NCBI GenBank assembly: GCA_945787285.1
Contig: CALZIC010000120.1
Span: 1-43,863, forward strand
Reading direction: 5' to 3'
DNA: 43,863 nucleotides
Source: an uncultured Desulfuromonadales bacterium
GTDB taxonomy: Bacteria; Desulfobacterota; Desulfuromonadia; Desulfuromonadales; Trichloromonadaceae
Part shown: positions 18,794-41,222 of the stretch, in pieces
How the letters are laid out: the number at the start of each line of letters is the position of its first letter
How positions within the stretch are numbered: position 1 is the first letter of the stretch
Notes under the pieces: model-generated
The model's input: the letters and a program-made list of their open reading frames with translations, nothing else
Told to the model about the DNA's origin: nothing
The model's database searches: none
Position numbers and translations under genes: made by a program

Positions 18794-19114
18794 CTATTGG
18801 ACAGGGCCCTGTTGGCCACAGCGAGTGTCTGCGGCTTGGCCCAAACACTCGAAGCAGTTTCTCAGGGTGCAAAGCCCACAGGAGTGATACATATAAACAG
18901 GGACACCTTGTTTTTTGGCGCTATCAACGGCTTTGTTACGCGCCCCGTGCGAAACCTTGTTGGTGAAAAGAACTACCGCATCGGCGGCTTTAATGCTTTT
19001 GGCGATTTTTGAATTTTCAGTGGAATATATGGTGATTTGATGGCCGTGCTTTTTGGCTTCTCGGCGATAGTGCTGCGCCAGGCGATCCATCCCTCCGATC
19101 AATACTATACTCAT
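18794..19114 (-). CDS. DUF2325 domain protein
   Basis: 106 aa; MSIVLIGGMDRL...AADAVVLFTNKVSHGARNKAVDSAKKQGVPV pattern recalled for DUF2325. Confidence 0.55.
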   Translation of the reverse strand: MSIVLIGGMDRLAQHYRREAKKHGHQITIYSTENSKIAKSIKAADAVVLFTNKVSHGARNKAVDSAKKQGVPVYMYHSCGLCTLRNCFECLGQAADTRCGQQGPVQ

Positions 19115-19494
19115 ATTCCCTTCCTTCCCGTTAAGGTTAAACTCGATACCTAAATGAAAATGATTTTCACCTTCCCTGTCAACCGGGTATAGGACAAAGT
19201 CGGGTTCGACCTAAGCCAGGTGTTCCCTCCAAAAAACCTTTAGTTTTGCTTCCTTCTATATACTTTTGACGACGTCTTGGGAGACTCTCCGAAGGGATCT
19301 CTATTCAATTTCTCGGCACCCTTTTACAAATTATCTTCACCTGGGTACAAAGGTCACTGCATCTATCCGGAGGCAAATGGAAAGAGTCCCAGACAAGGTT
19401 TTTTTGTAATTGATGCATTTTTTTTGTTTTAGGGGTTGATTGTTTCTAAGTGTAACTGTATAAGTTTTTATATATAAACTTTAAAGGAGAAATT

Positions 19495-19932
19495 ATGTCC
19501 ACTTTACTTGAAATGGCTACCGACCTCGTCTCTGCACACGCTTCCACCTCAAAAATGACCAAGGAAGAACTTCTGGCTGAACTCAATGAGGTATACGGGG
19601 TTCTCCAGAAGATGGAGAAGGGTGAAGAGATTGTTACAGAGGGCGCAACCACTGAGGAAGAGGCTGGCCCTGCTGTTTCAATGCGAAAGGCGTTTGGAAA
19701 GAAGCAGGTATTCTGCATGATTTGCGGCAAAGGTTTTACGACTCTTGCTCGTCATCTCAACACTGCCCACGACATGAAGCCTGGAGAGTACAGAAAGCAG
19801 TTCGGTATCCCCAGAACCCAGTCTCTGGCTGCTAAAGACTACTCTGAAAGCAGACGCCAGATGGCTATTGAGAAAGATCTCGGCGCAGGGCTTGCCAAGG
19901 CCCGTGAAGCCAGAGCTAAAAAGAAAAAGTAA
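19495..19932 (+). CDS. MucR/Ros family transcriptional regulator (C2H2-type zinc finger)
   Basis: 145 aa; C-x2-C...H-x4-H zinc finger (FCMICGKGFTTLARHLNTAHDMKPGEYRKQFGIP) typical of Ros/MucR; aaaggag RBS; sits at the start of an AT-rich island. Confidence 0.8.
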   Translation: MSTLLEMATDLVSAHASTSKMTKEELLAELNEVYGVLQKMEKGEEIVTEGATTEEEAGPAVSMRKAFGKKQVFCMICGKGFTTLARHLNTAHDMKPGEYRKQFGIPRTQSLAAKDYSESRRQMAIEKDLGAGLAKAREARAKKKK

Positions 19933-20086
19933 TTCGTTTCTATTTGGAAACAATGGAAAGCCCCCTGGTCCTGATGGATTTGGGGGCTTTTTGTTTTTGG
20001 GTTGCCTGCAGTCTTTCAATTCTATCCATTGAAATTTTTTCAAGAATGGATAAAGTTAGTAAGATTTTTAAAACAGGAGGATCGGC

Positions 20087-20923
20087 CTTGAAATTTATAT
20101 TTTTAATAATTTTATGCCATTTGACTTTATGTTTTTCCGTTTCAGCCGAAACGTCTTTGTGGGTGGTAAATACGGACAATTCCGTCACATATATCGGAGG
20201 CACCAGTCATGTGCTTCGCCCCATTGATTATCCTTTGCCTCATGAATTTGAGGTGGCCTACGCAAACTCCGATTCTATCGTTTTGGAAGCTAATCCCAGC
20301 ACCTTTGCCAGTCCAGCAATTCAGCAACAACTCCTAAGGAGTTCTATTTACAATCTCCTAAAACGTTCAACCTCCTAAGGCAGTATTGCGAAAGTTCGGG
20401 TATTCCAGTTGCCAATTTAATTAAGTTCAAGCCTTCCATGGTAGCCATGGTATTAGTGGTCTTTGAGCTTCAGAAACTTGGCAGTGCCGAAAGTGGGGTG
20501 GATTTTCACTTCCACGCTAGAGCCACTACGGATAAAAAACTTATCGGAGAACTGGAAACGGCTGAGCAACAGCTGGGATTCCTCCTGTCAATGGGCGAAG
20601 GCAACGAGGACCAATTTATAAAGCATACGATTGCGGACCTAAAAAATACCAGGGAGTTTTTTGAAAATTTTATTTTGGCCTGGCGAAATGGAAATGAATC
20701 AGAACTGGAGAACCTTCTTATTACTGCAACAAAAGAGACCTCTCCGGATATCTACAAAACCCTTTTCAAGGACCGTAATGCCGCCTGGCTTCCCATGTTT
20801 GAAAAATACATCGAGTCACAAGAAACGGAGTTCATTTTAGTTGGTGTGGGCCATCTGGTGGGCGAAGACGGCCTGATCGAAACCTTGAGAACTCGCGGGT
20901 TTGATGTGCAAAAGATGAAATAA
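20087..20923 (+). pseudogene. TraB/GumN family protein gene disrupted by a 40-bp insertion (frame break about 20340-20379)
   Basis: N-terminal part in the frame of ORF 19944..20378 (signal peptide then SLWVVNTDNSVTYIGGTSHVLRPIDYPLP). C-terminal part in the frame of ORF 20438..20923, whose coding frame is open back to 20339. Removing 20340-20379 joins ...AIQQQLLR to QYCESSGIPVANLIKFKPSMVAMV... in one frame; the junctions carry a ctcctaagg direct repeat. Confidence 0.6.
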
Positions 20924-20979
20924 TATTTAACATTGTACTTATCAATGTCTGTTGAGCGCTTGCATATTGGTCTAATCCT

Positions 20980-21540
20980 ATGAAAGTACCATTTTTTCAC
21001 TACATTAGATTTTGGGCCTACAATTCCTTCCTCGCCTTTGGGACTGGTTTTGTCATAGGATACCTGTTTCAGAATTTCTTTTTCTTTTTGCTTTCCCCCA
21101 TTACATTTCCCTTCGCCTTTCTTTTTGTTTACCAATATTTCATAGCATCATTTTTCTGGGGTGATCGCAGGGGGGCTTTTGAGTTTTCCTACCTTGAAAG
21201 AGTTGCCTCTACAAATAAGTTCAATCCTGCTTTAGCCACCGTTTTCAAAGAGGTCAAGCAAGAGTACAAGTTGGGAGATCCTCAATCTGCTCTGCAGAAG
21301 CTTCAAAAGGCTGCAAGCTACTATTCATCCAGCTTTGCGGTTCAATTTAAGCTTGCCATTGCGTGTGAGAAACTTGGGCTGGGTGATGAGGCAATTACCG
21401 CATATAAAAACGCATTAGCGGTAGTGCCAAATAATGCACCCAAATTACTTCAACACGTCATAAGACAAATTGAGCATGTTCGCACTAAGGGGCCTCGCAG
21501 AAAGTCGAGTGCCCCAGGGTTGCAAATGGTAATTTATTGA
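20980..21540 (+). CDS. hypothetical membrane protein with C-terminal TPR-like segment
   Basis: 186 aa; hydrophobic N-terminus, AT-rich codon usage like the surrounding island; no recognised domain. Confidence 0.4.
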   Translation: MKVPFFHYIRFWAYNSFLAFGTGFVIGYLFQNFFFFLLSPITFPFAFLFVYQYFIASFFWGDRRGAFEFSYLERVASTNKFNPALATVFKEVKQEYKLGDPQSALQKLQKAASYYSSSFAVQFKLAIACEKLGLGDEAITAYKNALAVVPNNAPKLLQHVIRQIEHVRTKGPRRKSSAPGLQMVIY

Positions 21541-21602
21541 AAAACACCCCAGTGCCGGGGAATTCCTCAAAAGGCATATTTCCTCAACCACCAGGGAGAA
21601 TC

Positions 21603-21998
21603 ATGCAAGTATCTTATCCAACAATTCTAAGAAGATATATGTCAACTTTTATCGATGGGGCTTTCGTCGTCTCGACATTTATTGCGCTTTCATATGTATT
21701 TCAAGAGGATTCTCAACTGGAAAACAATATCCGAATTGCGGTATTTTTTACCATGTTCTTCATATATGAGCCAATATGCACAAGTCTGTTTTGTACTATG
21801 GGCCAAAGGCTTACCGGCATAAGGGTCAGGAAGTTCAACAGTAAAGACAGGATATCGATACCTGCCGCCTACTTACGCATAATTGTGAAGATTGTTCTGG
21901 GCTTTATCTCTCTCCTCACGATCCCTTTCACAAATGGCCGGAGAGCAATTCACGATTTTACGGTTAATTCTGTTGTTATAATGGAAAAAAAAGACTGA
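21603..21998 (+). CDS. RDD family membrane protein
   Basis: RDD-domain pattern (RRYMSTFIDGAFV ... GQRLTGIRV ... RAIHDFTVNSVVI). Start at MQVSYPTIL with gggag RBS; ORF-track start 21537 is probably too far upstream. Confidence 0.6.
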   Translation: MQVSYPTILRRYMSTFIDGAFVVSTFIALSYVFQEDSQLENNIRIAVFFTMFFIYEPICTSLFCTMGQRLTGIRVRKFNSKDRISIPAAYLRIIVKIVLGFISLLTIPFTNGRRAIHDFTVNSVVIMEKKD

Positions 21999-22092
21999 CT
22001 ACTGCCCGTGAGAGTACCCGTACTAAAGAGTCCTGAGGACCCGCATTCTGCCCTGCCGGTGCTGCGTAACGGTTGAAAAGGTCTCCTGATAA

Positions 22093-23104: not shown

Positions 23105-23145
23105 ACAAAAGAGCCGGACTGAATTATCAGCCCGGCTCTTTTGAC
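23105..23145. terminator. bidirectional rho-independent terminator between convergent methyltransferase and rtcB
   Basis: aacaacaaaAGAGCCGGactgaattatcagCCCGGCTCTtttg. Confidence 0.75.
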
Positions 23146-23161
23146 TCCAATCTACTTCATT

Positions 23162-24395
23162 TCACTCTGACGCCATCTTCACCAGTCTCGGGTCGAACCG
23201 GGCCACCGTTTCCACCAGATCGGTCTGGGCCGCCATGACCTCATCGATATCCTTGTAGGCCATCGGCACCTCGTCCAGTCCGGCGGAGAGCAGGGTCACT
23301 CCGCGCTCATCGAGAAAAGCGCGTGCCTGCTTCCAGGTGAAATTCTGCCTGGCAGCCTTGCGGCTCATTTTTCGACCGGCACCATGGGAGGCGGAGCAGA
23401 GAGAGTCGGGGTGGCCCTTGCCGCGAACCACGTACCCTGACGTCCCCATGGAACCCGGGATGATGCCGAGAACGCCCATTCCTGCCGGGGTCGCCCCTTT
23501 TCGGTGAACCACCACCTGCTCACCGTTGTGAACCTCATTCCAGGCGAAGTTGTGATGATTCTCCACATCGAGAAGGACCTCGGCCCCGAGATGGTCGGCG
23601 ATGTCACGGTGGATCAGGGCATGATTGGCCGCTGAGTAAAGGCCCATCAGTTCCATGGCATTCCAGTACCCCTGCCCTTCTTCGCTCTGCAGATCGAGCC
23701 AGGCCAGCGGCTGAAGCTGGTTCGGGAGCTCGGGATGCAGCTCACGAGCAACACGGCTGTAGTGTTCAGCGATCGAACCGCCGGTCCCCCTGCTGCCGCT
23801 GTGGCTGAGCAGGGCCAGGTAAGTGCCGGCCTCCAGCCCCAGGTCAGACTGCAAAAGGGTCAGTTCACCAAACTCTACAAAGTGGTTGCCGCTGCCGCTG
23901 GTGCCCAGCTGCTTCCAGGCCTTGTCCTTTAGGCCGCGGGTCAGGCGGGTTATGCTCCAATCTGCATCCATGACATCGTGCTCTTTGCGGTGTGAAAAGG
24001 TGGCCCCGACACCAAAAGAGGTCGATCGGCAGCCCGTACCCCTGATGCGCATCGGGCATCAGCGCGCCGGAGACCGAAACCGGCAACCTGCAGGCGTTTT
24101 CCATCTGCTCTACCGCACTCTGTTCAAGGTCGGTCCCCCAGCGGCAATAGGGAGCAGGATCCTGCCGATGATCGAAGCGGGCCCGGAACTCCTTGACCTC
24201 CTGGTAGGTGAGCGCAAAGGAGCCGAACAGCTCATGCTCAAGATAGTCCTGCGGATTATCAACGACCGCGGACATCATCGCCCGGATCGACTGTTTATCC
24301 TGGCCCGCCCTGGCCGCCTGAGCGGTGGCCTGCTGAGCCAGTTTCATCAGGGAGCCCTTGGGGACCCCGAGATTTGTCAATTCTCTGTTTTTCAT
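23162..24395 (-). pseudogene. rtcB: RNA-splicing ligase RtcB, split into two overlapping ORFs by a frameshift at an A4/T4 run (about 24014-24020)
   Basis: ORF 23865..24395 carries the N-terminal part ending MPDAHQGYGLPI. ORF 23162..24052 carries the rest: GSGNHF, HHNFAWNE, RKGATPAGMGVLGIIPGSMGTSGYVVRGKG, SHGAGRKMSR, MAYKDIDEVMAAQTDLVE. The frames switch right after the metal-binding PDAHQGYG motif. Confidence 0.85.
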
Positions 24396-25462
24396 TGTTG
24401 ATCTCCTTCCTTGCCCGTGATCCGGATCTCCCAGACCTTAGGCGCAACCTTCACCATGTCCACCCAGACCTTAGGCGCAACCTTCACCATGTCCACCTCG
24501 ATATCCAGGAACTCTTTGAGTACTTCGATATTGGTCGTGGTATGGCGACTGGGCGCCAGGGTCCGAAATGCCCCGCCACCGGCCAGGGCCATCGGCAGCA
24601 GCAGCTGGTCGGCCAGGTGCTGCCCCACCGGGACCCCTGCGGCCAGATAGTCCTGAACCTGCTTGACGGTCTGGCTCGCCACCTTTTCGGCCCGCACACG
24701 CCATTCGCCGAAACCGGTGAAGATCTCGGTCAGGTTTTCGCTGGCCACCTCAAGGGTGAGGATATTGCCCGGACCTTGCGATTCAGCGACTTCTTCCACC
24801 TGCAGAGATTCCGCTGGCCAGGAGAGCTTGTTGCGCACCACTCGGATTTCACGCTCGCCGATGCTACGTGGCAGCCTGGCGACCATGGCACTGGCCCGAC
24901 GCCCGACGATATCGCCCCGTTCGAGCAGGCTGATCCTCGAGAAACGGGACACCGGTTCAATATGAACGAAAAACCTTCCGCCACCGGCCGGGTAAAAACC
25001 TGGCCGTTCCAGGGTTGCGGACACCTTGGGCCCCATGCGCTGCAGCAGGGGGAGAAAGGACCGGGCCAGAAAATCGAATGGGGGCGCATGAGGGTTATGG
25101 GTTCCCCCTTCCAGAACCAGTTCCGAAGCCCCTTCCGCCAGGCAAAGGGCCGGCAGAACAGTCTGCAGCACCAGGGTGCAGCTCCCGGCCGTGCCTATGG
25201 AGAAATGATACTGCCCCGCCTCGATGGCCTTGGGAATAAAGACCAGGTCTTGAGAACCGATCCGATTCCCTTCAACCTCGGCAGCACCGACCTCCACTGC
25301 GGCATTCACCGCGGTAAGGTGTTGCCTCATCAGCCCGGGCTTGTTGCGCCGAGCGCGGATTTTTTCGATTCGAAATGGTTTTCCGGTCACCAGGGAGAGG
25401 GCCAGCGAGCTGCGCAGAATCTGTCCGCCTCCTTCGCCTTGGGACCCGTCAATGGTAATCAT
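24392..25462 (-). CDS. rtcA: RNA 3'-terminal phosphate cyclase
   Basis: 356 aa; MITIDGSQGEGGGQILRSSLALSLVTGKPFRI N-terminus and RtcA-wide similarity; 4-bp overlap with rtcB start. Contains an in-frame 33-bp tandem duplication near the 3' end (24432-24497). Confidence 0.9.
   Translation of the reverse strand: MITIDGSQGEGGGQILRSSLALSLVTGKPFRIEKIRARRNKPGLMRQHLTAVNAAVEVGAAEVEGNRIGSQDLVFIPKAIEAGQYHFSIGTAGSCTLVLQTVLPALCLAEGASELVLEGGTHNPHAPPFDFLARSFLPLLQRMGPKVSATLERPGFYPAGGGRFFVHIEPVSRFSRISLLERGDIVGRRASAMVARLPRSIGEREIRVVRNKLSWPAESLQVEEVAESQGPGNILTLEVASENLTEIFTGFGEWRVRAEKVASQTVKQVQDYLAAGVPVGQHLADQLLLPMALAGGGAFRTLAPSRHTTTNIEVLKEFLDIEVDMVKVAPKVWVDMVKVAPKVWEIRITGKEGDQQ
24432..24497 (-). repeat. 33-bp perfect tandem duplication (x2) inside rtcA 3' end, in frame (VDMVKVAPKVW x2)
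   Basis: cagaccttaggcgcaaccttcaccatgtccacc repeated twice in direct sequence. Confidence 0.9.
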
Positions 25463-25523
25463 GGGTTGACTCCTTGCATTTCAGTATTCATGGAATGAGG
25501 CTTACCCAGGAGGCTGTCGGGCT

Positions 25524-25690
25524 TGCCGGACCGAAACGAGAAATTGGATGTTCGAGGCCAGTTTTTCTTGAATTTGAGAGCGAATAGCAGGGCTATTTGT
25601 CGAAAATTGTCGAGGATATGGGCCGATCAGCCTATTTCGGGCTATTTGTCGAAAATTGTCGAGGATATGGGCCGATCAGCCGATTTCGCA
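25524..25690 (+). repeat. dispersed repeat copy B with internal 49-bp tandem duplication (25591-25639 and 25640-25688)
   Basis: the first ~95 bp match 16194-16289; the unit ggctatttgtcgaaaattgtcgaggatatgggccgatcagccNatttcg is repeated twice in tandem with 1 mismatch. Confidence 0.85.
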
Positions 25691-25732
25691 GTCGGTTTCT
25701 GGTAAGTCCGAGAGCCTCCTAGCATACAGCGG

Positions 25733-26839
25733 TCAAAGAAGATTGACCACCCGCTCGGCAAGACCTTTTTCGCCAAGAACGACATTCATTTTGGAACTGC
25801 CGGCCACCTTCTCCAGCACTTCGAGTTCGCGCAGTCGCATGAGGGTCGGGTTGTTCTCCAGCAGGCGGGCCGTATTGGCCTGGCTGCGCATGGCGGCCGT
25901 CTCTTCGCGGCGCACGATGAGGTTGGCCTCCGCGGCCTTGCGTGCCTGGATGACCTGGTTGAGCAGGTCTTTCATCTCCCCCGGCAGGATCAGATCACGG
26001 ATGCCGAGGCGGATGATTTCTATACCGAAACTGCCTGAGCGCTGGCGCAAATTCCCCTCGAGTTCGCCAGCCACCCGGTCCTTTTCACTGAGCAGGGCAT
26101 CGAGGCTGCAAGTTCCGATGATCTCCCGCAGGGCCAGCTGGGCCTCGCGGTAAAGCGCCTGCTCGATGTTTTCAACGGCCTTCACCGCCCGGTGCGGGTC
26201 GGTAACCCGGTAGACGGCCTGGGCGTTGAGACGCAGGGTGACGTTGTCTGCGGTCATGATCTCCTGGCCCGAGATGTCGAGGACCGTCTCACGCAGGTCG
26301 ACCTGCTGAATCCGCAGCCGTCCGGCATTCTTCCAGAACATGTAGCGCCCCGGACCGAAGGTCTTTACGTATTCTCCGTCTTTGAAGAAAACCGCGGCAA
26401 AACCATCTTCGACAACAACACTCTCCAATTTTTCATCGGCCCCCGTCGACAAAAGAATTGCGCTCATCTCCTTGTGCTCAAACCGCACCTGACGTGCATC
26501 AACGATTTCAATCTTGATATCGCGAAGTCCTGTCCAAAGGGCATAGATCCCAGGGCCAACAACCTTGGCAAAACGCCCTTCGATCCAGACCAGGGCTCGC
26601 TGGCTATCCTTAAGGTCGAGCACCACGGCCTCTTCCCCGAGAACGCCCGCCTTGACAATCAGATCAAGCTTGTCGTGCACCAGCCAGGGATCACGCTGGG
26701 AGACTACATCGACCCGGATTTTGTTCAACGGATCGGTAAACCAGTGACGACCGGTGCCCAGAAGACCCTCGAACTCCTTATCTTTGAACAACAGACCCTT
26801 TTCGTGTGAGCGGACTTTTACGCTGCCGATTCCAATCAT
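25733..26839 (-). CDS. SPFH/Band 7 domain protein (stomatin/prohibitin-like) with C-terminal coiled coil
   Basis: SPFH-like core with coiled-coil tail (ARKAAEANLIVRREETAAMRSQANTARLL). Start at MIGIGSVKV (ATG 26839) with ggaggagaaggag RBS. Confidence 0.75.
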   Translation of the reverse strand: MIGIGSVKVRSHEKGLLFKDKEFEGLLGTGRHWFTDPLNKIRVDVVSQRDPWLVHDKLDLIVKAGVLGEEAVVLDLKDSQRALVWIEGRFAKVVGPGIYALWTGLRDIKIEIVDARQVRFEHKEMSAILLSTGADEKLESVVVEDGFAAVFFKDGEYVKTFGPGRYMFWKNAGRLRIQQVDLRETVLDISGQEIMTADNVTLRLNAQAVYRVTDPHRAVKAVENIEQALYREAQLALREIIGTCSLDALLSEKDRVAGELEGNLRQRSGSFGIEIIRLGIRDLILPGEMKDLLNQVIQARKAAEANLIVRREETAAMRSQANTARLLENNPTLMRLRELEVLEKVAGSSKMNVVLGEKGLAERVVNLL

Positions 26840-27036
26840 CTCCTTCTCCTCCTGTTGTCTCCATCCACCCTGGAAATAGGTGGCCCTCGGGGGGCGAGAC
26901 TTCCTCACGTTAGCCACATCGCCGATGCGGAGTGTCGTTTAAGAATATGCGCCCGGTTGTTTTCAGCAGGGGTCGCGGCCATCGGTTCGACTTTTGTTGC
27001 CGCCGAAGGCCGGGTGGCTCTGATCGCTGCCGTCTG

Positions 27037-27050
27037 CTACCGGTCTGCCC
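27037..27050 (-). promoter_or_regulatory. weak candidate sigma54 -24/-12 element (GGCAG-N7-AGCA) upstream of the SPFH gene
   Basis: the reverse complement reads tGGGCAGaccggtAGCAg with correct GG-N10-GC spacing but 2 mismatches to TGGCAC-N5-TTGCA; speculative. Confidence 0.2.
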
Positions 27051-27193
27051 AAACGGAATCCACGCACTGCATAGCATCTGACCGATGTTGTCCTCGACCG
27101 GACCGGGTCCAATCGATTCGGCTGACGGGAAGCCTCTCCCCCCTCAGGCCGGGTTGGTGACCGCCTGCGCGGTCAAGACGGGTTAATAGCCCG

Positions 27194-27264
27194 TTGTTGG
27201 TGCAGGACTCGAACCTGCGACTCCCGTGGGGTACACGGTGCTCTACCGACTGAGCTAACCAGAG
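27194..27264 (-). pseudogene. tRNA-like element / probable degenerate tRNA (intact D-arm and T-arm; 5-nt anticodon loop; acceptor stem only 4 of 7 bp)
   Basis: minus strand reads CTCTGGT-TA-GCTC-AGTCGGTA-GAGC-A-CCGTG-TACCC-CACGG-GAGTC-GCAGG-TTCGAGT-CCTGC-ACCAACA-A. Canonical GCTCAGTCGGTAGAGC D-arm and GGTTCGAGTCC T-arm. Anticodon loop has 5 nt instead of 7. No CCA. Confidence 0.5.
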
Positions 27265-27478
27265 ACTGCTACCGGCCTTCGTTAGAACCCATTTCGGAAC
27301 ACACAGCTCTGACCGCATCGTGCGTAGCGCTGTGAGCCGATGGCCCGGCGGTATCAGCCGCTTGTGTCTTTGGATATTTCAATGGTTGTGCCAAAGGAAT
27401 TCCAAAACCCTGACAATCTCATACTGGCATGTATTTACACTATTTTTACGGTTTAAAGAACAGCTCGTGGATGTTTGC

Positions 27479-27508
27479 TTGACATAACCATTCGGAATTT
27501 TCTATAAA
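27479..27508 (+). promoter_or_regulatory. sigma70-type promoter for rtcR (TTGACA-18 bp-TATAAA)
   Basis: TTGACA 27479-27484, TATAAA 27503-27508, 28 bp before the rtcR ATG. Confidence 0.45.
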
Positions 27509-27535
27509 TGCCTATACTTTTCTATAGGATTTTAT

Positions 27536-29146
27536 ATGAAAAAATCAGTCGCCATCGGCCTGCTCGGACCGGTTCTGGATAACGGCAAAGGCGCTAAGCG
27601 CTGGGAGCGCTGGCGCCCCTCGGTCGCACTCTGTCAACACGAGGAGCTGCTCGTTGACCGTTTCGTCCTGCTCTACCAGCGGCGCTACGCCAGCCTTCTG
27701 GAACGCATTGTCGAAGACATTCGCCAGGTCTCCCCGGAAACGGAAGTCGTCCCTCAGCTCATGGAGTTCGACGACCCGTGGGATTTCGAAAACGTCTTTG
27801 GAGCCCTGCACGACTTCGCCCGTGAATATCCGTTTGATCCCGACCAGGAGGACTACCTGGTACATATCACGACAGGCACCCATGTGGCCCAGATCTGCCT
27901 GTTTCTGCTGACCGAGGCGCATTATTTCCCGGCCCGCCTGATCCAGACCAGCCCCTCGCGCAAAGCGGACCAGCTTGCCTCGGGCACCTATTCCATCATC
28001 GACCTCGACCTTTCGCGCTACGACCGCATTGCCACCCGTTTCAGCCAGGAACAGCGGGATGATATCTCGTTTCTCAAATCAGGCATTGAAACCCGCAATG
28101 CCCGATTCAACCATTTGATCGCGCAGATCGAGCAGGTGGCGATCCGGTCGGTGGACCCGATTTTGATTACCGGCCCAACAGGTGCAGGCAAGTCAAAACT
28201 GGCCCGACGGATATTCGAACTGAAAAAGGCGCGGCGCCAAATCCCAGGGAACTTCGTCGAGGTCAATTGCGCCACCCTGCGTGGCGACGCCGCCATGTCC
28301 GCCCTCTTCGGCCATCGCCGCGGGGCGTTCACCGGCGCTTTGCAGGACCGTCAGGGGCTGCTGCGTGCTGCCGACGGCGGGATTCTCTTTCTCGATGAAG
28401 TGGGGGAGTTGGGACGGGATGAGCAGACCATGCTGCTGCGCGCCGTCGAGGAGAAGCGTTTTATGCCCCTGGGCTCGGATGCTGAAACAGAGAGCGATTT
28501 CCAACTTCTATGCGGTACCAATCGGGACCTTTACCAGGATGTGGACAAGGGGCGCTTCCGTGAAGACCTGCTGGCCCGGATAAACCTCTGGACCTTCGCT
28601 CTGCCGGGGCTGGCCGATCGCCCCGAGGATATCGAACCCAATCTCGATTACGAGCTCGACCGGTTCACGAGCCGCACCGGTGCCCGCATCACCATCAACA
28701 AAGAGGCGCGCCAGCATCTGCTCCGTTTCGCCACCTCCGCCGAGGCCACCTGGCCAGCCAATTTCCGCGATCTCAACGGCGCGGTCACGCGCATGGCCAC
28801 CCTCGCCCCGACCGGCCGCATCACCACCGAAACCGTAAAGGAAGAGGTTGCGCGTCTTCACCATGCCTGGCGGTCGCGAGGTGGAAATATAAAGGAGGAA
28901 ATTCTTCTGGAAGTACTCGGGCAGGGTGGGATTGAAAAACTCGACCTGTTCGACCGGGCCCAACTGGCCGAGGTGTTGCGCGTCTGCCGCGCCTCAAAAA
29001 ACCTTTCGGAGGCGGGCCGCACCCTGTTTGCCGTGTCGCGCCAGGAGAAAAAGCAGGCCAACGACGCCGACCGACTGCGCAAGTATCTCGCCCGGTTTGA
29101 CCTGAACTGGGAAAGCGTCCGAAGCACGGGGTCCACACCTCATTAA
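27536..29146 (+). CDS. rtcR: sigma54-dependent transcriptional regulator RtcR (N-terminal CARF domain, AAA+ sigma54-interaction domain)
   Basis: 536 aa; collinear with E. coli RtcR as recalled (MKKSVAIGLLGPVLDNGKGAKRWERWRPSVALCQHEEL..., DYLVHITTGTHVAQICLFLL, ARLIQTSPSRK, GPTGAGKS Walker A, GAFTGA, FREDLLARINLWTF). Confidence 0.9.
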   Translation: MKKSVAIGLLGPVLDNGKGAKRWERWRPSVALCQHEELLVDRFVLLYQRRYASLLERIVEDIRQVSPETEVVPQLMEFDDPWDFENVFGALHDFAREYPFDPDQEDYLVHITTGTHVAQICLFLLTEAHYFPARLIQTSPSRKADQLASGTYSIIDLDLSRYDRIATRFSQEQRDDISFLKSGIETRNARFNHLIAQIEQVAIRSVDPILITGPTGAGKSKLARRIFELKKARRQIPGNFVEVNCATLRGDAAMSALFGHRRGAFTGALQDRQGLLRAADGGILFLDEVGELGRDEQTMLLRAVEEKRFMPLGSDAETESDFQLLCGTNRDLYQDVDKGRFREDLLARINLWTFALPGLADRPEDIEPNLDYELDRFTSRTGARITINKEARQHLLRFATSAEATWPANFRDLNGAVTRMATLAPTGRITTETVKEEVARLHHAWRSRGGNIKEEILLEVLGQGGIEKLDLFDRAQLAEVLRVCRASKNLSEAGRTLFAVSRQEKKQANDADRLRKYLARFDLNWESVRSTGSTPH

Positions 29147-29206: not shown

Positions 29207-29896
29207 ATGCTCAAAGTGATCTTCGCCATATTTATCCTGCTGACGAGCCCAGCCTCCCTCCTTTCTGCCGAGGAGGGAAGCATATGCTATGGGACGACCA
29301 GCAAAGGGCGACTGGAGGGAGGGGTTTCTTTTCCGACATCCGGCAACAACTATAAAAGCTACAGCACTCTGGGCAACCTGCTTGGCCGGACGTATGTTCA
29401 CAGCAGCGTTCAGAAAGTCGTTCTCAATGCTTTCACAACCCTTGAGAAAAGCTATCCCGATAGAGTCTTTATGTACGGTGAAACGGGCTGGAAAAGCGGC
29501 GGTCGATTCAAACCGCACAAAACACATCAGAACGGGCTTTCCGTTGACTTTATGGTTCCGGTATTGAACAGCGACAAACAGTCAGTTTATCTGCCGACCA
29601 GTCCGTTCAATAAATTCGGTTATGACATCGAATTCAATGATCGAGGACAATACGAAAATTACACCATCGATTTTGAGGCAATAGCCGCCCACCTCGTCGA
29701 ACTTCACAAAGAAGCAAGGAGCTCCAGTATTGATATCTGGCGGGTTATTTTTGCCCCCAAGCTACAGCCACAGCTGTTCAGCACCAAGCATGGTACCTAT
29801 CTGAAAAAGAATCTGGAATTTTCCAAACGGCCATCCTGGGTTCGCCACGATGACCATTACCATGTTGACTTCAAGCTCCCATGTGAAAAACTCTAG
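29207..29896 (+). CDS. mepA: penicillin-insensitive murein endopeptidase (peptidase M74, MepA-like) with signal peptide
   Basis: 229 aa; signal peptide; LAS-type zinc motifs HKTHQNGLSVDF and HDDHYHVDF matching MepA's HASHQNGLDVD and HRAHMHVRL. Confidence 0.7.
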   Translation: MLKVIFAIFILLTSPASLLSAEEGSICYGTTSKGRLEGGVSFPTSGNNYKSYSTLGNLLGRTYVHSSVQKVVLNAFTTLEKSYPDRVFMYGETGWKSGGRFKPHKTHQNGLSVDFMVPVLNSDKQSVYLPTSPFNKFGYDIEFNDRGQYENYTIDFEAIAAHLVELHKEARSSSIDIWRVIFAPKLQPQLFSTKHGTYLKKNLEFSKRPSWVRHDDHYHVDFKLPCEKL

Positions 29897-29986
29897 TGGC
29901 CTGTTTGGTTAATCGCGTCGATTAATTCTGAGGCATTTTTGACCCTGTCAAGGCGCACCGACGCAGCCCTAGCTGAGCTTAAGTCA
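29892..29986 (+). repeat. ~95-bp direct repeat R1 (about 85 percent identical to R2 at 31545-31640), immediately after the mepA stop
   Basis: ctagtggcctgtttggttaatcgcgtcgattaattctgaggcatttttgaccctgtcaaggcgcaccgacgcagccctagctgagcttaagtca aligned against R2. Confidence 0.8.
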
Positions 29987-30053
29987 TTTCCGGCTGAGGC
30001 TACCCCCCCCAAAAAAAAATTACAAATGGGTTTATAACCCTAAATAAGGTTCT

Positions 30054-30142
30054 TACCACAGAGGCACAGAGCCACAGAGCAAGGCAGAGATTTTGCCTTT
30101 ATTAATCGATTTTTCCTCTGTGACTCAGTGTCTCTGTGGTTG
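30054..30142. repeat. long imperfect inverted repeat built from tandem SCACAGAG octamers (arms ~26 bp, 3 mismatches, ~30-nt spacer)
   Basis: accacagaggcacagagccacagagc ... (rc) accacagagacactgagtcacagagg; preceded by a C8A9 homopolymer tract at 30003-30019. Confidence 0.7.
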
Positions 30143-30177
30143 CTTTGATATTTTCGGCCTCAACCTTCTTTTGGGTT

Positions 30178-30220
30178 ATAAAACCGAAAACAAAAGCCAC
30201 AGGAGTTATCTGTGGCTTTT
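30178..30220 (-). terminator. rho-independent terminator downstream of the 402-aa ORF
   Basis: AAAGCCACAGgagttatCTGTGGCTTT hairpin followed on the minus strand by ttgttttcggtttt. Confidence 0.6.
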
Positions 30221-30262
30221 GAAATGCTGATCAAAATAGGGTTTGGCTATAGTCGCATCAAA

Positions 30263-31471
30263 TTAAACCTTAACCGCACGCTCCCGAAGATACTCAACCT
30301 GTTCTGGTAAAAGCGGATCCATCACTTTGTACCTGGCAGGTATTTCATCCTCCACCGCTGAAATGTAGTCAGGACCCAGACAAGCGTTAAACACCGACCA
30401 GCCCACATTACCTAGAATTTCCTCATTTTCATGATCATAAAGAGAGACTTCGTCAGTCAACGGCAAATATGTAGGAATGTTCAAAGTGTAAACCGAAAAG
30501 GTCATGATTCCAGCCTCGCTATTAGTCGCCTGGAATTTCGAAACAAAAACCTCCTCTCCTACTTGCGCCTGCAGATGCTCTTTCTGCTCATCATATTGCG
30601 TAAAAGCTTCTTTCACACGTTGGAGGGACGCAGCTTGTCGACCAGGTTCACCCTCAAGCGGCAACCATTGCTTCCAAAGCCCATCGTTACTTTTTTGCCA
30701 GAAACTTTGGCTAAAGGGCCTGTGATTTTCAGAGAACTTTTCCCCAATCGCGATCATTCTCAATAAAGTTTCATCCGTCCCCTGGTCTGTGACCAAGCAA
30801 ATAGAATGGGACGGTGCAAAAAATATCGGATTCCCATCAAAAGGAATACGGACATTATCGTCAGCCGCAACGATCCGCGCAAAATCATAGTCATCTTGAT
30901 ATGTTGACATCCAAATGTGCGGCTCCACCTGTTCCCACTGATCTAACCCAGTGGCTCTTACCAAGGCAGCACCAGCTATCCGAAGGCCTTCTTCTTTTGT
31001 AATCCCAGCTTTTTCTATATCTTCATTTTTGACGGTGGATATGGATTCTTCGTTGTCGGAAATCAGCTCCAATAACGCCTCGCCAATTCTAAATAGTGAT
31101 AAATCTGTCTGCTCATACCCTTTTGAGGCCATCATTTTTTTTCTCAAAGAGATTTCAAAATCGGTGCGTACTCGTATTGCAAGTGAGTTCATGAAATCGT
31201 CTGGGTCAAACACACGGGGAGAGAGCAGTTCGTTAAGAAGCCGCTCAATAGATGGAGCTCTCTCTTTTCTTCCAAGCTCTTTCATTTTCATGAAAATGTT
31301 GCCCAGGAAAATGCTGGTGGGGGCCTTGTCCCGACCTCTCTCCTCGACCGACAGAGTCACTTCGCGGGCCTCAGGCTTATATTCAATCACCAATGAAGGA
31401 TCAATATACTTGGCAATACGACCAATATCTTTGGCTAGCTTCTTCTCGGTATATCGAAACATTTTAGTCAT
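30263..31471 (-). CDS. hypothetical protein, 402 aa, no recognised domain; low-GC gene flanked by direct repeats R1/R2
   Basis: long ORF with coherent codon usage, terminator downstream, AT-rich relative to flanks; no family recognised from sequence. Confidence 0.6.
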   Translation of the reverse strand: MTKMFRYTEKKLAKDIGRIAKYIDPSLVIEYKPEAREVTLSVEERGRDKAPTSIFLGNIFMKMKELGRKERAPSIERLLNELLSPRVFDPDDFMNSLAIRVRTDFEISLRKKMMASKGYEQTDLSLFRIGEALLELISDNEESISTVKNEDIEKAGITKEEGLRIAGAALVRATGLDQWEQVEPHIWMSTYQDDYDFARIVAADDNVRIPFDGNPIFFAPSHSICLVTDQGTDETLLRMIAIGEKFSENHRPFSQSFWQKSNDGLWKQWLPLEGEPGRQAASLQRVKEAFTQYDEQKEHLQAQVGEEVFVSKFQATNSEAGIMTFSVYTLNIPTYLPLTDEVSLYDHENEEILGNVGWSVFNACLGPDYISAVEDEIPARYKVMDPLLPEQVEYLRERAVKV

Positions 31472-31517
31472 TTCCTCACGTATTAAATCGCTATTCCATT
31501 GTTTATAACTAATCTAA

Positions 31518-31543
31518 AATCCGTGACCTATCACGGATTTGAA
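31518..31543. promoter_or_regulatory. perfect 10-bp inverted repeat AAATCCGTGA-cctat-TCACGGATTT just upstream of the 402-aa ORF start; candidate operator
   Basis: seen directly; 47 bp upstream of ATG 31471 on the minus strand. Confidence 0.4.
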
Positions 31544-31544
31544 A

Positions 31545-31640
31545 GCTAGTGGGCTGTTTGGTTATTCGTGTCAGTTAATTCTGAGTCATTTTGGTTGCTG
31601 TCAAGGCGCGCCGACGCAGGCCTAGCCTTGCGTTAAGTCA
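31545..31640 (+). repeat. ~95-bp direct repeat R2 (pair of R1)
   Basis: ctagtgggctgtttggttattcgtgtcagttaattctgagtcattttggttgctgtcaaggcgcgccgacgcaggcctagccttgcgttaagtca. Confidence 0.8.
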
Positions 31641-31847
31641 AGGAGGCGCAACGAAGACAGCGGCGGTACTCTCAACGTAATTGACCGCACGGTCCACATC
31701 CTCCTCGCTGAAGGTGATGTGCTTGTGGCAATTCGGACACTTGCAGGATTTTCCCGGAACGATGTCCTTCAACTGGTTTTTGACAACTCCTCTACAGTAG
31801 GGGCATTCAAGGCGAATCGAAAAATCCACTCCTTTTACTCCTCTCAT
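31638..31847 (-). CDS. small zinc-ribbon protein (two CxxC pairs), hypothetical
   Basis: MRGVKGVDFSIRLECPYCRGVVKNQLKDIVPGKSCKCPNCHKHITFSEEDV...; start chosen at internal Met; its stop lies inside R2. Confidence 0.45.
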   Translation of the reverse strand: MRGVKGVDFSIRLECPYCRGVVKNQLKDIVPGKSCKCPNCHKHITFSEEDVDRAVNYVESTAAVFVAPP

Positions 31848-31961
31848 CTCTAATTGGGCAAATTGATTTCTGCGCGCAATCTTCTGTGAGTCCAAAATAA
31901 AAAAGGCGAAACCACATGGTCCCGCCTTTTTTACAATGGGAGGGCACATCAGGGCCTACGG

Positions 31962-32321
31962 TTATTTCACTTCGGCCGCAGGTGTCATGATCGCGGCGTA
32001 CTCAGCGGCATCCAGGTTACCGTCCTGATTAGCGTCGGCTGATTCAAAACTCAGCTGCAGCGCATCACTGGCGCCAGCTTCTTCCTTGCTGATAGTGCTG
32101 TTCTGGTCAACATCCAGGGCTTCAAAGATCGCATTCCGCTCCTCAGCCACGCCCTGCTCCTCAGCCACGCCCTGCTCCTCAGCCACGTTCTGCTCCTCAG
32201 CCACGTTCTGCTCCTCAGCCACGTTCTGCTCCTTAGCCACACCCTGCTCTTGGGTTGGGGCACAAGCGGCACAAGTAAGCATCAGGGCAGCAAGAAGAGT
32301 CAAAATTACATTTTTGTTCAT
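31962..32321 (-). CDS. lipoprotein with seven 6-aa tandem repeats (VAEEQN) and two EF-hand-like Ca-binding loops
   Basis: Start at MNKNVILTLLAALMLTCAACA (lipobox LTC, aaggag RBS). Then 7 x VA(K/E)E(Q/R)(N/G) encoded by 18-bp tandem repeats at about 32115-32240. Then DVDQNSTISKEE and DANQDGNLDAAE EF-hand loops. ORF-track start 32546 is likely too far upstream. Confidence 0.65.
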   Translation of the reverse strand: MNKNVILTLLAALMLTCAACAPTQEQGVAKEQNVAEEQNVAEEQNVAEEQGVAEEQGVAEERNAIFEALDVDQNSTISKEEAGASDALQLSFESADANQDGNLDAAEYAAIMTPAAEVK

Positions 32322-32628
32322 TTTTTTAGCTCCTTCTAAAGGGTCTGTTGAAATGCCATATTGGCTGTCTATTCTACCCTTCAGCAACCGCTGTGCCATG
32401 ATAGTTTTATCTACAAAAAACGATGCCTTACATTGACCCGCCAGAATTTCTGCCTTGCTTGGGGAAAATTTCTGTTCGCCGGCTGCGACAGATAGAAGGG
32501 GTCGGCCATAAAAGGGGCGCAAAAACAACAAGTTCGTTTGTCTCAAAATAGCGACCGCTCATGGTAGTGCATGAATCTTCAAGGGGAATGTGATCCGGAT
32601 TACGATCCCTATAATTTTCACTTTTTCC

Positions 32629-33942
32629 CACTACTGTCCGGTTAAAAAAGTTTGTACGTCCGTAACCTCTTGATTCTTTTTGTTCTTTGACATAACTGTT
32701 CTTTTTTCGATTTGAATTTGAGTATGCTGGCACCTTCCCGCGACTTGAGGAGGGGACCAATGAATTCTGGCAAAACCGTTTTCAGGCAGCTACTCGAGAT
32801 TCTCCCACGACATGAATTCAACGTTTGCGTGCGTCGCTATCGCGGTGAGTATCGGGCCAAGACTTTTTCCACCTTCGATCAGTTCCTCTGTCTTGCCTAT
32901 GCACAACTGACCGGGCGTGAAAGTCTGCGTGACATTGAAACCTGCCTAAACTCCCAAAGGGAGAAGCTTTACCATGTTGGGTTTCGAGGTAGCGTGTCTC
33001 GGGCAACGCTTGCCGATGCCAATGAGCGAAGGGACTACCGCATTTTTCAGGATTTTGGACACGTCCTGATCGGCATTGCGCAACGTCTGTACCAAAACGA
33101 GCCCCTTGCTATCGAATTGAAGCAGCCCCTTTATGCCTTCGATTCCTCAACCATCGACCTTTGTCTTTCTCTGTTTCCATGGGCTGAATTCCGAAAGACG
33201 AAGGCGGCGGTTAAAATGCACACTCTGATTGACCTACGTGGCTCAATTCCGACGTTCGTGGCCATCACAACAGGCAAGGTTCATGATGTCAGAATGCTGG
33301 ACGAGGTTCCGATCCATGAGGATGCTGTTTATACAATGGATCGAGGGTACATCGATTATGCTCGGCTCTATGCAATTCATAAGCAGTCAGCATTCTTCGT
33401 GATACGGGCCAAGGCCAATCTGCGTTACCAGCGACTGTACTCGCAACCGAAGGACAAGGCCGCGGGGATCCGGGCTGATCAGGTCATAACCCTGGGGACG
33501 CAGAAATCGAAAGAAGGCTATCCCGAACGACTTCGACGGGTCAGTTATGTTGACAAAGAGCGGAACAAGCGGCTGGTTTTCCTCACCAACCACTTCGATA
33601 TTTCAGCACGCACAGTTGCCGATATCTATAAGCAGCGCTGGCAGGTGGAGCTCTTCTTCAAATGGATAAAACAGCATCTGCGGATCAAGTCGTTCTACGG
33701 TACGTCGATCAACGCCGTTAAGAGCCAGATCTGGGTTGCCCTGTGCATTTACCTGCTGGTGGCTATAACCAAGAAGACGCTTGGCATACCTTGCAAGCTC
33801 TACACTTTTCTACAGATTATTGAGGTCAATTTGTTTGAGAAAAAGCCCATTTCATCGCTGGTTGCAGAGGCACTTAAACAAACCACAGACAGCCTCGAAT
33901 GTAACCAGCCGAATTTATTCACAAGTTAACCGGACAGTAGTG
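32629..33942 (+). mobile_element. IS4-family insertion sequence (1314 bp) with perfect 17-bp terminal inverted repeats CACTACTGTCCGGTTAA
   Basis: IRL 32629-32645 and IRR 33926-33942 (reverse complement identical); single DDE transposase ORF inside; flanks share only a tttttc motif, no clean target-site duplication. Confidence 0.8.
32760..33929 (+). CDS. IS4-family DDE transposase
   Basis: YKQRWQVELFFKWIKQHLRIKSF motif typical of IS4/IS5-superfamily DDE_Tnp_1; start at MNSGKTVFRQLL with gaggagg RBS. Confidence 0.85.
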   Translation: MNSGKTVFRQLLEILPRHEFNVCVRRYRGEYRAKTFSTFDQFLCLAYAQLTGRESLRDIETCLNSQREKLYHVGFRGSVSRATLADANERRDYRIFQDFGHVLIGIAQRLYQNEPLAIELKQPLYAFDSSTIDLCLSLFPWAEFRKTKAAVKMHTLIDLRGSIPTFVAITTGKVHDVRMLDEVPIHEDAVYTMDRGYIDYARLYAIHKQSAFFVIRAKANLRYQRLYSQPKDKAAGIRADQVITLGTQKSKEGYPERLRRVSYVDKERNKRLVFLTNHFDISARTVADIYKQRWQVELFFKWIKQHLRIKSFYGTSINAVKSQIWVALCIYLLVAITKKTLGIPCKLYTFLQIIEVNLFEKKPISSLVAEALKQTTDSLECNQPNLFTS

Positions 33943-41172: not shown

Positions 41173-41222
41173 GGAATTTGACGGCTTGTGTACCGTGCGG
41201 GTAGTCGTGTCAAATTATTCGC

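Follow-up and report, generated by a model that had tools for sequence, protein, structure and literature searches.

Direct repeats flanking an accessory gene in an uncultured Desulfuromonadales bacterium as independent copies of a dispersed MITE-like element

The question raised by this locus is whether a gene enclosed by two direct repeats owes its position to them. The window, by which we mean the whole stretch of 43,863 nucleotides (nt) analyzed here (contig CALZIC010000120.1 of an uncultured Desulfuromonadales bacterium), contains two repeats in the same orientation, R1 and R2, and between them an open reading frame (ORF) encoding a protein of 402 amino acids (aa). A preliminary description of this DNA took the repeats to be the boundaries of a possibly mobilizable gene cassette and the protein to be a defense candidate. 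Our analysis points elsewhere. We consider it very likely that R1 and R2 are independent copies of a non-autonomous MITE (miniature inverted-repeat transposable element) of about 165 nt that is scattered in Desulfuromonadales, and that the enclosed gene is simply part of the accessory content of a variable stretch.

The repeats and their orientation were confirmed by an ungapped alignment of 81 nt at 85% identity (29893-29973 and 31546-31626) and by a blastn alignment of 95 nt at 83% identity (E 3e-23); these are the only two long copies of the repeat within the window. We scanned one genome per bacterial species with the best-conserved 19 specified bases common to R1 and R2, GTCAAGGCGCNCCGACGCAG, and inspected the resulting 76 loci at 8 kb per locus. 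About 20 of the 76 loci belong to a single Desulfuromonadales metagenome-assembled genome (MAG), LH_M60, and other carriers in this order include FO_M_Desulfobacterota_21, FO_M_Desulfobacterota_23, FO_M_Desulfobacterota_25, Pelobacter sp. UBA6093, a Syntrophotalea MAG and a Geopsychrobacter MAG. Most of the matches in the Desulfuromonadales MAGs have not only the 19-base pattern but its whole surroundings in common. The common unit is about 165 nt long, starts with CTAGTGTCCCGTGCGG and ends with CCGCACGGGGCACTAG, both of which can be seen at locus L066.

The element is short and has no coding capacity, and its copies are found between genes or at gene ends. There is usually one copy per 8-kb locus, and the copies are distributed singly over many contigs. 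Many of them coincide with contig termini, as is usual for high-copy repeats. The terminal inverted repeats, which begin GTGTCC... or GTGGCC..., pair with each other in the consensus fold of the unit, a long, imperfect single hairpin in which 12 of the 57 pairs show compensatory changes. Of 26 copies, 19 have CTAG as their left end and 15 as their right end, and at L058 the internal CTAG of one copy harbors a second copy. Truncated copies were found at L017, L044, L058 and L061. The copy at L017 (4696-5291, in MAG LH_M60) comprises model positions 53-122 and extends to the limit of the sequence examined at this locus; a hydrolase-like ORF is joined to it by its 3' end and reads on into it, a mirror image of R1 in the window. 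We considered this locus as a possible junction with a partner insertion sequence (IS) and rejected it as being this fusion; L009, considered as a possible cassette array, was rejected since it contains no repeated units.

A covariance model and a hidden Markov model (HMM) were built from 20 full copies and run on the window. These models recovered R2 at full length, R1 as positions 1-93 of the model and, in addition, a third fragment located directly 3' of the stop codon of a histidine-kinase gene (HisKA and HATPase_c domains). R1 contains the left terminal repeat, the left arm and most of the core, and when scored as a whole element by the covariance model it reaches only 16.6 bits. R2 scores 115.5 bits with nhmmer; its right arm has a deletion of about 11 nt and its right end is decayed, with CCACAT in place of CACTAG. 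The repeat had been described as 95 bp long because a truncated copy and a full copy share just that part. Over the common 93 nt, R1 and R2 are 82% identical, whereas R1 is 93.5% identical to the copy at L085, in another MAG, and the first 93 nt of R2 are 91.5% identical to the copy at L030 in Pelobacter sp. UBA6093. Each repeat is thus nearer to a copy in a foreign genome than to its counterpart, and therefore the two were not made by one insertion event: R1 and R2 arose separately, as members of a dispersed MITE-like family. The supposed cassette boundaries are two unrelated copies of a genome-wide MITE, and searching other genomes once with the repeat is enough to settle the cassette question. 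The 76 loci are scattered, and the repeat is absent from 11 loci that hold homologs of the 402-aa protein. The features of the window are collected in Table 1.

Table 1. Coordinates of the features discussed, in positions of the window.
Feature	Position	Strand	Evidence or remarks
mepA-like murein endopeptidase gene (Peptidase_M74)	29207-29896	+	Pfam PF03411, 1.5e-10; NCBIfam PRK09429
R1, truncated copy of the ~165-nt MITE-like element	29893-29985	+	nhmmer 74 bits, E 2.6e-22, HMM positions 1-93
Junction past the truncation point of R1, holds C8A9 (30003-30019)	29986-30027	.	not similar to the remainder of the element
Element B, ~150-nt palindromic repeat with arms of SCACAGAG octamers	30025-30175	.	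inverted repeats and a copy in L088
Intrinsic terminator of the 402-aa gene	30191-30221	-	12-pair stem then TTTTCGGTTT, 42 nt past the stop codon
402-aa ORF, divergent DUF1444 (YtpQ/CgoN) superfamily protein	30263-31471	-	profile searches via intermediates
Perfect 10-bp inverted repeat with 4-nt spacer	31517-31540	.	AAATCCGTGA-CCTA-TCACGGATTT, between R2 and the gene start
R2, full-length degenerate copy of the MITE-like element	31546-31700	+	cmsearch 93 bits, E 6.8e-23, model positions 1-165
Small zinc-ribbon ORF, 69 aa from Met35 of a 103-aa ORF	31638-31847	-	weak matches to DUF7836 and the YnfU family
IS4-family insertion sequence, at the end of the low-GC stretch	32629-33942	+	DDE_Tnp_1 and DUF4372; 17-bp perfect terminal inverted repeats
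Third fragment, left end of the MITE-like element, 35 nt	41186-41220	+	nhmmer E 0.0012, HMM positions 2-36

The same findings bear on the idea that the repeats are attC-like sites of an integron-type array, with the 402-aa gene as a cassette. The repeats do share with attC sites their common orientation, a length of about 95 nt, their position adjoining the ends of unrelated genes and a variable, low-GC neighborhood. The 95-nt unit, however, folds no better than its shuffles (as DNA, both strands of both repeats; z -0.84 to +0.15), and the 95-nt stretch is one arm of the true unit, a CTAG-ended hairpin of 165 nt. No RYYYAAC...GTTRRRY pair frames the repeats: R1 has neither motif, and R2 has GTTAAGT near its 3' end with no matching RYYYAAC at its 5' end. 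Unlike the cassettes of an array, the copies are dispersed singly over many contigs, and a Pfam scan of nine principal ORFs located between 25.7 and 37.3 kb revealed neither an integrase nor any other recombinase. We regard this reading, and with it the comparison to attC sites made in the preliminary description, as extremely unlikely.

The ends of the element suggest how its copies may have arisen. The element would insert into CTAG sites, giving ends of the form CTA-G...C-TAG, and would most likely duplicate TA as IS630-type transposases do; its partner may be of this type. For IS630 a 2-bp duplication of TA in 5'-CTAG-3' has been recorded (PMC2577343, Table 1, citing Tenzen and Ohtsubo 1991). 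Under this scheme, one copy would have landed on the stop codon of mepA and later lost its right 70 nt, giving R1, and another would have landed in the 3' end of the zinc-ribbon gene, giving R2; this is also the order of events that we infer.

The positions of the repeats relative to the flanking genes are accounted for by the same insertion preference. That the repeats abut the stop codons of these genes was confirmed by the coordinates: the mepA stop TAG (29894-29896) is part of the CTAG that opens R1, and the stop codon of the zinc-ribbon ORF (31638-31640) lies inside R2, which encodes the last 20 codons of this ORF and its stop. Copies are often found exactly on gene stops because CTAG contains TAG on both strands, and R1 would abut the mepA stop because the element inserts at CTAG. 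Elsewhere, 6 of 26 full copies coincide in the same way with the TAG that terminates an open frame of 80 codons or more (frames of 88 to 453 codons). The element can rewrite the C-terminus of a gene, as it has for the zinc-ribbon ORF. The longer, 103-aa version of this ORF contains within it a terminator-like hairpin (31898-31933) of the upstream gene. Knowledge of an element that inserts at CTAG should be useful for the annotation of Desulfuromonadales genomes and for explaining contig breaks in their MAGs.

The element can be compared with known systems. As in MITEs of the IS630/Tc1-mariner type, the unit is about 165 nt long, non-coding and multi-copy, has terminal inverted repeats and CTAG at both ends, occurs as nested or truncated copies and inserts at gene ends. 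In Geobacter uraniireducens, the Chunjie MITE has a length of 178-235 bp and is present as 38 full and 57 partial copies (reviewed in PMC10969869). It belongs to a related lineage and resembles our element in its many full and partial, mostly intergenic copies; it differs in length (178-235 bp as opposed to 165 nt), the comparison being one by description. A search of a plasmid collection gave no match to the element. Viral contigs contained one exact match that lacked the rest of the core and whose surroundings read like coding DNA, and it was taken as chance. Neither the window nor the three types of element described in this work matched any Rfam family at the gathering score, and at E values up to 10 only noise from microRNA and small nucleolar RNA families appeared. 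The likeness between the ends of the element and those of the neighboring IS4-family element was too weak to be used.

The inner part of the element has a wider distribution than the element itself. Aquitalea, Chromobacterium and a Neisseriaceae isolate have multi-copy elements, about 118 nt long, that also match the 19-base pattern. In Thermoanaerobaculia and other Acidobacteriota the matching elements are about 170 nt long, and there are single matches in Methyloversatilis, Gemmatimonadetes and Myxococcales assemblies. The arms and ends of these types differ completely from those in Desulfuromonadales, while the inner 56 nt are almost identical. This near-invariant core consists of GTCAAGGCGCGCCGACGCAG (also given as GUCAAGGCGCGCCGACGCAG), a short hairpin and then AAGGAGGCGCAACGCAG; it is located at 31600-31665 in the window and occurs at loci L012 to L087 (for example, L014 2700-2830, L018 4290-4460 and L077 7259-7313).

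We aligned 36 sequences across the groups, all of them selected by an exact match to part of the core, and found that 80.8% of the cells pair in the proposed structure, as compared with 29-41% when the partners are slid. Cells with changes on both sides numbered 72, against 41.8 +/- 5.3 after shuffling (none of 500 shuffles reached 72), although copies of one family are not independent and a palindromic DNA element would also appear to pair. Six of the 10 pairs of the closing helix change on both sides, and one pair of the core runs through G-C, A-U, C-G and G-U. The mean RNA folding energy was -84.0 kcal/mol for the strand given here and -66.9 kcal/mol for its complement (25 of 25 Desulfuromonadales copies), and the strand bias has the same direction in the other two types of element. 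An ordinary MITE would not require as much as is seen here, namely the conservation of the half of the core that was not used for selection and the surplus of G-U pairs on one strand. A literature search for the core sequence returned no paper. The element might carry an undescribed functional structured RNA or single-strand DNA module, which we hold to be doubtful; such a core might act as a cofactor of transposition, as a regulatory RNA that transposition has spread or as a small ribozyme. The core conserved across phyla is a candidate, and a modest lead, for a new structured-RNA family.

Several points weigh against the interpretation of R1 and R2 as independent MITE copies. No pair of an empty and a filled site was found, and the TA duplication is read from the statistics of the ends only. 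Among the 76 loci, at 8 kb per locus, there was no autonomous IS with matching ends, no transposase adjoining the copies and no pair of element ends at an IS-like spacing, which sets our element apart from IS630/Tc1-mariner-type MITEs with a recognizable partner. The near-invariance of the inner 56 nt across phyla, as noted, goes far beyond what transposition requires. The collection scanned did not include the source genome of the window, in which the copies counted are three in 44 kb. The loss of the right part of R1 is left without explanation: the 42 nt between R1 and the palindrome, C8A9 included, matched nothing. There is, finally, the alternative that recombination between copies of the element brought in the gene.

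This alternative takes two forms. Pairs of MITEs are able to carry genes between them as composite units, and the left end of R1 and the right end of R2 could be the outer ends of such a composite transposon. By homologous recombination of the Campbell type, foreign DNA with a partial copy would have joined a resident copy, so that one flank would keep a truncated copy and the opposite flank a full one, and the observed order of positions 1-93, insert and positions 1-165 does fit a single crossover with a circle carrying positions 1-93. One gene lies here between two same-orientation copies, with the outer left end intact at R1 and the outer right end recognizable at R2, and the segment between them has the lowest GC content of the region (0.45). 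A composite transposon, on the other hand, would have intact outer ends and a duplication around the whole unit. Here the inner part of R1 is missing, R2 has a decayed right end with no TA, and no matching duplication flanks the 1.8-kb unit. At 82% identity the two copies each resemble a different subfamily, and none of the 11 loci with a homolog of the 402-aa protein links that gene to the element. Beyond R1, mepA is also low in GC and without close relatives, which means that the acquired block extends past the unit formed by R1 and R2. We consider capture by the two copies unlikely, and the claim of a mobilizable cassette bounded by the repeats gives way to that of two dispersed MITE-like copies, of a kind present singly at many loci, in a variable region.

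The evidence for such a variable region comes from base composition and from relatives. The GC content of the genes is 0.605 for rtcR, 0.483 for mepA, 0.451 for the 402-aa gene (0.554 for the window), 0.498 for the IS transposase and 0.590 for the nitroreductase gene, and the low-GC stretch runs from the end of rtcR (~29122) to the IS, or from about 29.1 to 33.9 kb. The order rtcB-rtcA-band7-rtcR is common to the window (23128-29121) and three relatives, of which L088 has 87% nucleotide identity to the window and L089 and L090 are more distant. Synteny with all three stops at ~29111-29121. Past rtcR, each relative has cargo of its own: a CHAT-domain protein and a caspase-like Peptidase_C14 protein in L088 (7120-14422), an acetyltransferase in L089 (6902-7441) and an RF-1-like protein in L090 (10639-12525). 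The nearest homologs of mepA are about 70% identical at best, and those that are named are mostly gammaproteobacterial. Because of its low GC, the differing cargo in the relatives and the distant mepA homologs, we interpret the stretch of ~29.1-33.9 kb as an acquired variable region, and the position immediately past rtcR is a possible hotspot of gene variability. The contrast in GC and the break in synteny thus bear out the earlier view of an acquired, AT-rich accessory region that ends in an IS4-family element, whose transposase gene occupies 32712-33929 and whose terminal repeats are at 32629-32645 and 33926-33942. A search for the empty site through mepA found no syntenic relative among homologs of ~70% identity, and through rtcR it reached three relatives that all diverge right after this gene, which places only the left border.

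Some other features of this neighborhood were recorded. The CHAT and Peptidase_C14 genes of L088 look like a defense-type pair. A tRNA-Gly gene (anticodon ACC according to ARAGORN) is located at 27193-27264 on the minus strand, between the band-7 gene and rtcR and 1.9 kb upstream of the end of synteny, with no integrase seen adjoining it. Within the low-GC stretch, a minus-strand ORF at 31962-32546 encodes a likely lipoprotein with C-terminal EF-hand calcium-binding motifs, and an 18-nt tandem repeat of 6.2 copies within it (32138-32249) encodes repeats of the type (A/V)AEEQ(N/G)V.

The protein encoded between the repeats had been described as belonging to no recognizable family. This holds for direct searches, in which the 402-aa protein had no match in Pfam, NCBIfam, PADLOC or PHROGs, but not for profile searches, which place it in the DUF1444 superfamily. 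Its likely start is the second ATG (31462), giving a product of 399 aa, because the spacing from a GAGGA, the family consensus and a 399-aa product on record all agree on it. A look-up of a record for the window's own protein returned none. There are 38 close homologs, all of about 400 aa and about 45% identity, and a profile made from them reached 2627 representative clusters at E values up to 0.001. The Pfam model of DUF1444, PF07285, matched 38 of 72 distant full-length relatives at E values up to 0.001 (best, 4.7e-14), and 3 of the 10 distant relatives that were scanned individually lie above its gathering cut-off of 23.8 bits. P0400, P0407 and P0423 match the family profile over nearly their full length with E values of 1e-39 to 5e-40 and score 29-39 bits on PF07285. 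The window protein itself has no match to PF07285, and one of its 38 close homologs reaches an E value of 0.0026. The profile matches through these intermediate sequences nevertheless establish the 402-aa protein as a remote member of the DUF1444 superfamily, so that an orphan protein can be filed with a large superfamily that has one characterized member. One distant relative, P0372 (1059 aa), is a fusion that combines DUF1266, a right-handed beta-helix region and, at its C-terminus, a domain of this protein family.

A single DUF1444 protein, YtpQ/CgoN of Priestia megaterium, has been studied; it is 270 aa long and is a FAD-dependent (flavin adenine dinucleotide), oxygen-independent coproporphyrinogen III oxidase (PMC10965808). 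The remote homology covers the first ~250-290 residues, and both proteins are soluble and multi-domain alpha/beta, neither with a solved structure. The window protein has an extra C-terminal part of about 110 aa and is cytoplasmic, and its AlphaFold2 model has a predicted local distance difference test score (pLDDT) of 90.5; a structural search with it found no structural neighbor. It differs from YtpQ/CgoN in its length (400 as opposed to 270 aa) and in having no direct Pfam match, its gene adjoins no heme-synthesis gene, and its host is outside the Bacillaceae, where the coproporphyrin pathway predominates. Given the 130 additional residues of the window protein and its distant relationship to CgoN, we have not transferred the function of CgoN to it. 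Our best guess, made by analogy with YtpQ/CgoN and with low confidence, is that it may be a cytoplasmic redox enzyme.

The contexts of the homologs were also used to consider whether the protein is an anti-phage defense or anti-defense factor carried on mobile DNA. One homolog is found in the cargo region of an integrative conjugative element, where it adjoins RadC and DUF6573 genes, another lies among small unknown ORFs together with a nuclease gene and a Schlafen-like gene, and the distribution of the family is patchy, all of which would suit such a role. The remaining contexts are heterogeneous and do not. Two homologs occupy a conserved chromosomal context in which they adjoin peroxiredoxin-like and HxlR genes, and this conserved synteny by the peroxiredoxin-like gene in two genomes is the type of finding that had been named beforehand as refuting a defense function; others are among TonB-receptor, ECF-sigma (extracytoplasmic function) or ExbD genes. 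The protein has no PADLOC or PHROG match, and the superfamily is large (the 2627 clusters above), overlaps DUF1444 and has as its one studied member an enzyme of the heme pathway (PMC10965808). The proposal of a defense candidate was not supported, and we judge a defense or anti-defense role to be very unlikely. The upstream neighbor of one homolog was considered as a paralog or partner of the protein and was rejected, having neither similarity to it nor a domain.

The non-coding DNA between the repeats contains every feature that had been reported there: the C8A9 tract, the inverted repeat, the terminator and the 10-bp palindrome were all found where they had been placed. The segment that had been called structured is a second dispersed palindromic repeat, element B, followed by the terminator of the 402-aa gene. 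Its inner arms (30055-30082 and 30113-30140) are 28 nt long and 86% complementary, and an outer pair is present at 30028-30051 and 30162-30185. A copy of element B is found in the relative L088 (3399-3540) in the interval between rtcA and band7, with 77% identity over 151 nt (E 2e-26), and at this position the window has unrelated sequence. The arm motif GGTTCTTACCACAGAGGCACAGAGNCACAGAG (30046-30077 and 30113-30140 in the window) recurs in six unrelated metagenome contigs, L092 to L097, where it is present alone or as an inverted pair. The palindrome at 31517-31540 is followed by TTTTAG on the minus strand, and it may serve either as an operator or, for transcripts arriving from upstream, as a weak terminator; a terminator scan that requires 3 G-C pairs did not pick it up.

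Three further observations were made in the window. The rtcA/band-7 intergenic region (25590-25688), where L088 carries its copy of element B, contains a 49-nt unit in two tandem copies with a 98% match. A second low-GC stretch (0.42-0.45) at 19000-22000 contains a Ros/MucR-type regulator (19495-19932) and TPR and RDD proteins. A TraB/PrgY/GumN-family gene appears to be split into two ORFs (19944-20378 and 20438-20923), which may be the result of a frameshift or may represent a pseudogene.

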